Origin: Escherichia coli
GTDB lineage: Bacteria > Pseudomonadota > Gammaproteobacteria > Enterobacterales > Enterobacteriaceae
Assembly: GCF_051903065.1 (NCBI RefSeq)
Contig: NZ_CP178438.1
Direction: 5' to 3' (one strand)
Length of the DNA: 64,000 nt
Both the position numbers and the translations under genes were made by a program. A model generated the notes under the pieces. The model had not been told where the DNA came from. It searched no databases and worked only from the letters and a program-made list of their open reading frames with translations. Of the stretch, positions 1-1,973 are shown piece by piece. How positions within the stretch are numbered: the first letter of the stretch is position 1; every line of letters starts with the position of its first letter.

Positions 1-1350
1 GTGCAGATCTCCCGGCAGACGAGCATCACGAATGGCACGGATCAGATTGTGCTCCAGCACATAGTTATCCATGGTTGCCAACTGCACTACCTGCTGGCGG
101 ATGCGGCAGCGATAGGCCCAGATAAAGCACTTCTCGATGGCCAGTGACAGCCCTTGGCTGCCGAACTTGTCGATATAGAAGATCAGGGCGCAGTCGAACA
201 TGGCCCGCACATAACGATCCCCGGTGCGGTGGCGACGCTCGTAGCTGCCCAGGGTCGATAGCACCTTGCTGGCCATCGGTGTCAGCGTTTCGCCGAGCAG
301 GGTGGCAGATTGCGCCTTGCCGGAATCAGACTCCTCGGCCACGATGGCGGCCACCCGCGTCTGGTAGTACTCGGCCATCTCGAAAAAGCGCCGACCATTG
401 ATGATCATCTGGTCGAGATGAAAGGGAAACGTCATGTACTGGCCGTCAATCTTGCGCTGGTACTGGCGGTTGTACTCATCGACAAAGTGGTGGGCGATGC
501 GCAGCGACTCCACGTAAGGATAATGCCCTACCCGATCTAGGTTGACCCCCTTGAAGAGATCCACCTCCCCCTTGCCAAAGTAGCGGGCCGACTTGCCCTC
601 GGCCCACTGGCGTACCCGATAGAGATAGAGGGCGAACAGATTGGCCAGCTCGTCGCTTGGCAGGCGCTCCCAATGGGCGACCGCCTCGGCCTTGAGATTG
701 GCCTCATGACCGGCAAACTCGCGCAGGTGAAATGCCTTGAGCAGATCGTGAGGAGCCAGATCGCGCCCCCGGGCATTTTGCGAATCGAAGAACTGGAACG
801 CCTCCGAGATATCCTGCAGTACAAAGCAGACCACCTGACAGCGGTTGAGCAGAAAGTCAATTTGCTGCTCGTCAAACTCAGGGCGGGCCACCAGCCGACG
901 CAACTCCAGATAGTTGCGTCTGAGGTTGAACTCCGAATCCCGGCTGGGGAAGCGCTGGCGCTGCATAAACGCATCGATAGGTCCACGCAAGACCTGCAAT
1001 TGCTCACGCAGATCCTGACGTTGAAACCGGATACTCTTCTCTTTGCCACTGCGATTTTCGTTATCCAGCACCTCGATCAGCGCCTTGACGGTCAACATCA
1101 GGGTCAGGGTGCGTTGCTGACCATCGACGATATCAAGCATCTCGCCCTGCTCACTATCGGTGTGCTGATGAAACACCACCGAGCCCAGCCGGTAGGCGCT
1201 CTTGTCCTGATGGGTTGCCAAATCGGTAAAGAGATCCGAGATATTCTTGGAGCCCCAGCGGTAAGGTCGCTGATAGCTTGGGATGGCCAGTTGGGGAATG
1301 GCCAGCAACTGGCGTACCGACTGCACTTGATTATTAATGCTCTCCATCAT
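1..1350 (-). CDS. DUF262 (ParB/Srx-like nuclease domain) protein, N-terminal ~450 aa; 3' end beyond window start
   Basis: Minus-strand frame open from the ATG pair at 1347-1350 to the window edge; translation MMESINNQVQS...IVDGQQRTLTL carries the DGQQR motif; not in ORF track because no stop in window. Confidence 0.6.
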   Translation of the reverse strand, partial: MMESINNQVQSVRQLLAIPQLAIPSYQRPYRWGSKNISDLFTDLATHQDKSAYRLGSVVFHQHTDSEQGEMLDIVDGQQRTLTLMLTVKALIEVLDNENRSGKEKSIRFQRQDLREQLQVLRGPIDAFMQRQRFPSRDSEFNLRRNYLELRRLVARPEFDEQQIDFLLNRCQVVCFVLQDISEAFQFFDSQNARGRDLAPHDLLKAFHLREFAGHEANLKAEAVAHWERLPSDELANLFALYLYRVRQWAEGKSARYFGKGEVDLFKGVNLDRVGHYPYVESLRIAHHFVDEYNRQYQRKIDGQYMTFPFHLDQMIINGRRFFEMAEYYQTRVAAIVAEESDSGKAQSATLLGETLTPMASKVLSTLGSYERRHRTGDRYVRAMFDCALIFYIDKFGSQGLSLAIEKCFIWAYRCRIRQQVVQLATMDNYVLEHNLIRAIRDARLPGDLH

Positions 1351-1371
1351 GCCTCCTGCGGTATGAAGTGG

Positions 1372-1595
1372 TCAACAAAAACTGGCCACCGCGTTAGAGT
1401 TTTTCCAGTATCGGTTTTCTAATTCGTTTGGCGGTAACCCACCATTATATTCGTGCGGTCTTAGTGCGCTGTAATATCCAACGATATAGTCCGTTATTGC
1501 GTGAGCTGCATCGCTGAAGCTTACATAGCCCGTCGCCGGCACCCATTCGTTCTTCAGACTCCTGAAGAAGCGCTCCATTGGGCTGTTATCCCAGC
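1372..1595 (-). mobile_element. IS3-family transposase OrfB 3' fragment (IS2-like), truncated by the adjacent IS1 remnant
   Basis: ORF 1372..1578 translation [13 protein letters not shown]...[13 protein letters not shown] is a typical IS3-family OrfB C-terminus; no upstream part. Confidence 0.5.
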
Positions 1596-1973
1596 AGTTT
1601 CCGCGCAGACGATGACGTCACTGCCCGGCTGTATGCGCGAGGTTACCGACTGCGGCCTGAGTTTTTTAAGTGACGTAAAATCGTGTTGAGGCCAACGCCC
1701 ATAATGCGGGCTGTTGCCCGGCATCCAACGCCATTCATGGCCATATCAATGATTTTCTGGTGCGTACCGGGTTGAGAAGCGGTGTAAGTGAACTGCAGTT
1801 GCCATGTTTTACGGCAGTGAGAGCAGAGATAGCGCTGATGTCCGGCAGTGCTTTTGCCGTTACGCACCACCCCGTCAGTAGCTGAACGGGAGGGACAGCT
1901 GATAGAAACAGAAGCCACTGGAGCACCTCAAAAACACCATCATACACTAAATCAGTAAGTTGGCAGCATCACC
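1596..1973 (-). mobile_element. Truncated IS1 copy (terminal IR, insA, start of insB)
   Basis: Near-identical to the complete IS1 at 21318..22085 in opposite orientation; IS1 end ggtgatgctgccaac (reverse complement) at 1973; homology stops near 1596. Confidence 0.75.
1643..1918 (-). CDS. insA: IS1 InsA
   Basis: 91-aa [13 protein letters not shown]...CSHCRKTWQ zinc-finger InsA. Confidence 0.8.

Follow-up and report, generated by a model that had tools for sequence, protein, structure and literature searches.

TgvAB of Vibrio cholerae (VC1767/VC1766), encoded on VPI-2, is a two-protein type IV restriction system of the GmrSD family that acts against phage carrying glucosylated 5-hydroxymethylcytosine (glucosyl-5hmC). 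Neither gene protects alone, even when over-expressed. Defence is abolished by mutation of the DGQQR motif of TgvA or TgvB, and by mutation of the His-Me finger of TgvB, and T-even phages escape the system by losing the glucosylation of their 5hmC. The tgvA and tgvB open reading frames (ORFs) are reported to overlap by 8 bp. Here we investigate a DUF262 gene at the left edge of a 64,000-nucleotide stretch of Escherichia coli chromosomal DNA (contig NZ_CP178438.1; the whole stretch is called the window), together with the gene directly downstream of it. Positions 1-1347 of the window (minus strand) probably encode the TgvA-like member of a two-gene type IV (modification-dependent) restriction system of the TgvAB type. 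The genes are referred to as tgvA-like and tgvB-like, and their products as the A and B proteins.

Other relatives place sensing and cleavage on one chain. Like both proteins of the pair, the single-chain GmrSD enzymes (Eco94GmrSD/EcoCTGmrSD) and BrxU have a DUF262 NTPase/sensor domain with a DGQQR motif, and the B protein also shares their DUF262-linker-DUF1524 layout. HEC-06 is a single GmrSD-like defence protein of ~560 amino acids that works alone (Payne et al., 10.1101/2024.01.29.577857). Unlike single-chain GmrSD, BrxU and HEC-06, the A protein lacks DUF1524, and by analogy with V. cholerae two polypeptides would be needed. The phosphorothioate (PT)-sensing DUF262 nucleases SspE and DndI belong to the same superfamily and are the top Protein Data Bank (PDB) fold matches of the modelled A protein. 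Unlike these, the A protein has a different C-terminal domain, the TM-scores are low, and no PT-modification genes are nearby.

An earlier note on this DNA had the tgvA-like gene running off the window. It does continue past position 1, but all that is missing is the final 34 codons and the stop, which were read from an identical RefSeq record. Window 1-2000 is 100% identical to E. coli 23CRST027 (NZ_AP045789.1), and the full-length A and B genes were both taken from this record (L001 in the coordinates below). The RefSeq start codon is the ATG at 1347, with another in-frame ATG at 1350. Because the leaders align with those of Vogesella and Enterobacter homologues free of insertion sequences (IS), and the start codon is conserved among them, the ATG at 1347 is confirmed as the start. 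Plus-strand ORFs over the gene (for example 673-1422, 249 amino acids) were rejected as antisense shadows of a gene rich in G+C at third codon positions (GC3, 72%), and RefSeq annotates nothing on the plus strand opposite it.

The A protein comprises an N-terminal, ParB/NTPase-like DUF262 domain followed by DUF7834 (Table 1). The DUF262 motifs are YQR (residues 25-27), DGQQR (75-79, window 1111-1125) and FDSQN (187-191), and their residues are invariant across 53 homologues. The earlier note had called the product a DGQQR-motif DUF262 protein of the GmrSD/SspE superfamily, and the GmrSD_N match (E 1.9e-28) and the motif at 75-79 bear this out. It had also stated that the C-terminal domain cannot be seen in the window, which is incorrect, as 231 of the 246 residues of the DUF7834 match lie inside. 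The DUF1524 or HNH domain that it expected on the same protein is absent: the full 483 residues end with DUF7834, and Pfam gives no GmrSD_C, DUF1524 or HNH match anywhere along them. DUF7834 of the A protein contains no nuclease motif. Neither the A nor the B protein was matched by any NCBIfam model, a PDB sequence search with the A protein matched nothing, and a literature search on DUF7834 found no papers. The A-protein family has more than 5,000 matches, and the DUF262 plus DUF7834 architecture is present in all among the matches listed.

The leftward extension that the earlier note had proposed as a check was run, and the nuclease was found on the next gene. The tgvB-like gene is directly downstream of tgvA-like, outside the window (L001 12861-14903), and encodes 680 amino acids; the two ORFs overlap by 8 bp, ATGAATGA, at L001 14896-14903. 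Pfam identifies GmrSD_N (E 1.8e-29) and GmrSD_C/DUF1524 (E 1.5e-11) in the B protein. Its motifs are DGQQR (79-83), an HxxP His-Me finger (H583-F-S-P), N606 and NSRLSN (615-620). A PDB sequence search with the B protein gave nothing beyond weak N-terminal DUF262 matches. In BLASTP the A and B proteins align over their DUF262 domains only (24%, E 1e-9), and this comparison gave no evidence for an origin of DUF7834 from the middle region of B.

The pair was compared with the first 399 residues of VC1767 and of VC1766, as given in the supplement of the TgvAB paper. VC1767 (TgvA) itself has GmrSD_N and DUF7834 in Pfam, the latter with E 3.4e-38 at residues 199-399. The BLASTP alignment of the A protein with VC1767 (25% identity, E 1e-21) covers both domains and reaches residue 419, and that of the B protein with VC1766 (TgvB) has 24% identity (E 8e-21). 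Like TgvAB, then, the locus has a DUF262 plus DUF7834 protein followed by a DUF262 plus DUF1524 protein, an 8-bp overlap, a DGQQR motif in each protein and, in the second, an HxxP His-Me finger. The same E. coli A protein (AOT32537.1, MESINNQVQ...) is listed among the VC1767 hits in Table S5 of PMC11411939, and a Klebsiella plasmid B protein (AHM87929.1, MNDAGVRPF...) among the VC1766 hits. The pair had thus been catalogued as a TgvAB homologue before, and its defence island is of a known kind; this is a refinement of annotation and not a discovery. In RefSeq both genes are merely 'DUF262 domain-containing protein'; a TgvAB-type two-subunit type IV restriction system is the more fitting annotation. 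By analogy with V. cholerae TgvAB, A and B would act jointly, probably as a complex, in which recognition of hypermodified (glucosyl-5hmC-type) phage DNA by both DUF262 domains would license the TgvB-like nuclease to cut it.

There are also differences. The amino acid identity to the V. cholerae proteins is no more than ~25%, and the native promoter region of the E. coli pair has been lost. TgvAB is embedded in a type I restriction-modification (R-M) operon, between hsdS and hsdR, from which it takes its name. The E. coli pair instead follows a complete type I R-M operon, with ~650 bp of IS debris between. Such embedding is not a requirement of the TgvAB family, since tgvAB homologues gave 1,341 hits against 79 for the five-gene embedded operon (PMC11411939). 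The pair is not tied to its present neighbours, which are hhe, an anti-phage gene, and the type I R-M operon. Vogesella homologues (A 90%, B 86% amino acid identity) and Enterobacter homologues (A 78%, B 76%) keep the pair and its 8-bp overlap. The Vogesella pair adjoins a type I-E CRISPR-Cas system and the Enterobacter pair is in another island, and neither neighbourhood contains hhe or type I R-M. An obligatory functional link to either gene set was rejected, as these close homologues lack both. Because the pair and overlap are kept elsewhere, and A and B diverge in parallel, we regard the two genes as a functional unit and hhe and type I R-M as mere neighbours.

The earlier note had placed an IS3-family fragment and a truncated IS1 upstream of the gene, in place of its native upstream region. 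Both are there (1364-1610 and 1598-1973, 97-99.5% identity). In blastn, the IS-free Vogesella operon matches at 85% over 3.5 kb; the boundary of this homology is precisely at window 1363, the base next to the IS tip, and it follows that IS debris has taken the place of the native upstream region. The note's description of the debris as abutting the start codon holds in part. IS debris is directly upstream, but a 16-nt leader with a Shine-Dalgarno sequence remains between tip and start codon. The IS911-like fragment terminates in ...TTGACCACTTCA, its terminal inverted repeat ending ...CACTTCA, with the tip at 1364; RefSeq enters it as a partial 'integrase core domain' pseudogene. The IS1 identity was determined over 378 nt with the intact IS1A of the same genome as reference. 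Its insA (1643-1918, minus strand) is a full-length ORF for a 91-residue InsA with one substitution, C11R. C11R, a change relative to that IS1A, is located in the CxxC motif of the zinc finger, and the InsA copy here may be defective. The substitution is also present in the Klebsiella-type plasmid remnant (L002 13935-14120), and the chromosomal and plasmid remnants therefore derive from one ancestral IS1 insertion. Because the IS1 and IS911 matches overlap by 13 nt, the two remnants were joined internally by a microhomology deletion. An IS911-like element had thus inserted 16 nt upstream of the tgvA-like start codon, after which it and the neighbouring IS1 were truncated and joined by that deletion. 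The native promoter region has been lost, with the ribosome-binding site and both ORFs staying intact. Judged on their sequence statistics, the domain and IS matches are not chance (E 1e-28 and 1e-76; IS identities 97-99%).

At least 80% of window 1-2000 is held by 253 of 5,426 complete genomes. The tgvA-like gene was found in 254 E. coli genomes, every one of which (254/254) has the gene-IS911 junction, and in ~400 PLSDB plasmids (identity 99% or more), of which 389 are from Klebsiella. All of the ~650 copies are at least 99% identical. The plasmid locus L002 has different debris: IS1 nt 1-242 is followed by an IS110-family fragment and then by an IS911 fragment that is longer, at 313 bp. The debris stretch of 348 PLSDB plasmids exceeds that of the window by ~200 bp. 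Some isolates probably depart from the two-gene form. The database proteins P0050 (449 amino acids) and P0077 (642 amino acids) match the query with 100% identity across 62-64% of its length, and each combines DUF262, DUF7834 and DUF1524, which probably reflects fusion of the A and B genes through an internal deletion. A match to window 1-1363 that is shorter by one base, in E. coli ET896 (NZ_CP100883.1 2010819-2012180), may represent a frameshift allele of the tgvA-like gene.

With the native promoter region gone, any transcription must start upstream on the same strand. Candidate sources would be read-through from type I R-M, the IS1 promoter PIRL (a PIRL-like candidate is at 1966-1939, minus strand) and a weak promoter-like site in the IS911 fragment that contains a perfect TATAAT (1473-1444, minus strand). 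The tgvAB-like cassette is co-directional with the type I R-M operon and with insA, and a scan of the minus strand from 2900 to 1200 found no terminator-like site. The top consensus match at the IS tip, TTGACC-18-CATGAT (1375-1346, minus strand), was rejected as a productive hybrid promoter with a -35 element from the right inverted repeat of IS911. When the upstream regions of the IS-free Vogesella and Enterobacter loci were scanned for consensus promoters, none convincing as the native one was found. Has the scar then re-wired the cassette? It might be transcribed only as a 3' extension of type I R-M, or from an InsA-controlled IS1 PIRL, or both, which would recreate the 'type I-coupled' expression of V. 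cholerae for an allele that, at ~25% identity, might recognise a different DNA modification. We consider this proposal speculative and rather unlikely.

Several points weigh against a working TgvAB-type system. Transcription of the cassette is a prediction, the native promoter region being absent, and the match at the IS tip gives no translatable full-length message because its -10 element overlaps the start codon. IS1 insertions are classically polar. The ~300 nt that separate the start codon from the insA stop (1643) are probably untranslated and could permit Rho termination. With all copies at 99% identity or more, the intact ORFs may reflect recent spread and not selection. Between chromosome and plasmid the A gene has 3 synonymous and 1 non-synonymous differences and the B gene 2 and 4, which are too few for judging selection. 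At ~25% identity to the V. cholerae proteins, the modification recognised could differ. Finally, the AlphaFold2 model of the A protein, built from the 53 homologues, is confident in the N-domain, but its C-terminal half is poorly so (pLDDT <50 at residues 245-319), and the predicted fold of DUF7834 is uninterpretable.

Could the pair be a silent passenger, deprived of its promoter by the IS911 insertion and kept intact only by the recent spread of one block (type I R-M, IS scar, pair and hhe) among plasmids of Klebsiella and pipolins of E. coli? That the native upstream region is lost fits this, as do the near-identity of the ~650 copies, which leaves little time for decay, and the unproductive nature of the strongest promoter-like match. 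The few differences seen show no depletion of non-synonymous changes, and deletion or fusion derivatives (P0050, P0077) have reached the databases. However, both ORFs, the Shine-Dalgarno sequence and the coupling overlap are intact across the records examined, and no terminator-like site separates the cassette from the co-directional operon and insA. The junction is also common to the chromosomal and the plasmid versions, whose remaining debris has diverged since, so it has survived several rearrangements. On balance we doubt that the pair is silent, though we give this some weight. The single chain proposed in the earlier note, a GmrSD/SspE-like nuclease with its DUF1524 or HNH domain past the window edge, has next to no chance of being correct. 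The DUF262/DGQQR N-domain on which it was built is real. The best PADLOC model for both the A and the B protein is HEC-06 (E 1e-30 to 1e-33), a match that is mainly to the N-terminal DUF262 region; PADLOC HEC-06, Orf5 and SspE match the N-terminal ~100-200 residues. The A protein, though, ends 34 residues past the edge, its residues 219-464 are DUF7834, and its sole HxxP (HGFP, residue 449) is outside any nuclease domain. The note itself had named the lack of a nuclease domain in the full protein as the finding that would speak against a single chain.

If the nuclease is on B, it might be argued that B works as an enzyme by itself, in the manner of single-chain GmrSD, BrxU or HEC-06, and that A is a dispensable regulator or a decoy for phage inhibitors such as IPI*. 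B does have the complete GmrSD architecture, single-chain GmrSD-like enzymes do function alone, and an anti-inhibitor role for TgvA was raised by the authors of PMC11411939. Against this, V. cholerae needs both genes, TgvA mutated in DGQQR no longer supports defence, and the A-B pairing and its overlap are conserved from 25% to 90% identity. That A is dispensable is in our view very improbable. It is improbable too, if slightly less so, that the pair senses PT, as SspE and DndI do, or another non-cytosine modification in place of glucosyl-5hmC. In a Foldseek search the AlphaFold2 model of the A protein matched SspE and DndI best (6jiv, 9jfl), through the N-domain and with TM-scores of 0.30-0.35, and BrxU was a mere weak structural match. 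SspE PADLOC models match both proteins, and 25% identity to V. cholerae TgvAB leaves room for a different specificity. Yet no dnd or ssp modification genes are annotated in the island, and the domain architecture, DUF7834 and the gene overlap fit TgvAB and not SspE. A two-subunit TgvAB-type system is the reading that we prefer. For annotation in general, a DUF262 protein that lacks a nuclease domain is a reason to inspect the next gene.

A pipolin defence island at the leuZ tRNA site has the pair as cargo, between the type I R-M operon and hhe. Also on the pipolin are two tyrosine integrases, DUF2787 and a primer-independent PolB; it is inserted next to a tRNA-Leu/Cys/Gly cluster between yecA and pgsA. 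A tRNA search within L001 found none; the attachment tRNA is further right, at ~26.7 kb of the window. A survey of pipolins describes type I R-M, hhe and HEC-06 cargo near transposases, swapped with plasmids, and the HEC-06 label is the one used there for cargo such as this pair. Two genes of the type I R-M operon are additional to hsdM, hsdS and hsdR: a UPF0149/SEC-C gene and a YgjP-like M48 metallopeptidase gene.

Table 1. Features of the tgvA-like gene, the IS scar and the surrounding island (window coordinates)
Feature	Position	Strand	Remarks
tgvA-like coding sequence, WP_000443937.1	1..1347	minus	residues 1-449 of 483 in window
DUF7834 (PF25202), A protein residues 219-464	1..693	minus	Pfam E 1.3e-76; residues 219-449 in window
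DUF262 / GmrSD_N (PF03235), A protein residues 20-207	727..1290	minus	Pfam E 1.9e-28
Native 5' leader remnant, TACCGCAGGAGGCATG	1348..1363	minus	Shine-Dalgarno AGGAGG at 1352-1357; aligned to IS-free homologues
IS911/ISEc52-like (IS3 family) right-end fragment: 3' end of orfB and right inverted repeat (IRR)	1364..1610	minus	97-98% identity
Outward-facing TTGACC hexamer in the IS911-like fragment	1375-1370	minus	
Stretch of 13 nt matched by both IS1 and IS911	1598..1610		overlapping blastn matches
IS1 left-end fragment (IS1 nt 1-376): left inverted repeat (IRL), insA, start of insB'	1598..1973	minus	99.5% identity
Type I R-M operon	2005..9565	minus	upstream, co-directional
YgjP-like M48 metallopeptidase	2005-2760	minus	overlaps hsdR end
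hsdR	2757-6044	minus	
UPF0149/SEC-C (YecA-like) gene	6094-6777	minus	between hsdS and hsdR
hsdS	6774-8012	minus	
hsdM	8009-9565	minus	
Pipolin	~1-26783		also extends left; piPolB 16104-18704, tRNA-Leu 26697-26783

The two sides of the IS scar differ in their similarity to the plasmid locus L002. The tgvAB-hhe side (L001 6925-16610) is 99.76% identical to it, and the type I R-M side (L001 16734-24854 = window 1734-9854) 97.2% and 95.0% identical, with part of hsdS unmatched. This difference implies separate histories, and thus that the scar is a recombination seam, of a kind typical of cargo exchange between plasmids and pipolins. Beyond correct annotation the significance is small; the system is present in ~5% of complete E. 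coli genomes and ~400 plasmids, mostly of Klebsiella. Expression of the pair, if it occurs, would change how susceptible these clinical lineages are to T-even-like therapeutic phages.

The closest relative of the tgvA-like gene that was found is that of Vogesella, at 90% amino acid identity. Across L001 6939-16347 the G+C content drops stepwise, from 56.8% in tgvA-like (GC3 72%) to 51.9% in tgvB-like and 44.3% in hhe, the window mean being 48.2%. This composition suggests an origin that is both mosaic and foreign. A frameshifted IS5 and a frameshifted IS1 are in or beside the island (window 14497-15419 and 21372-22068). Just downstream of hhe, an intact IS1A (L001 5228-5925) is beside truncated restriction-endonuclease and hypothetical genes. 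IS traffic in the cargo region of the island is heavy.

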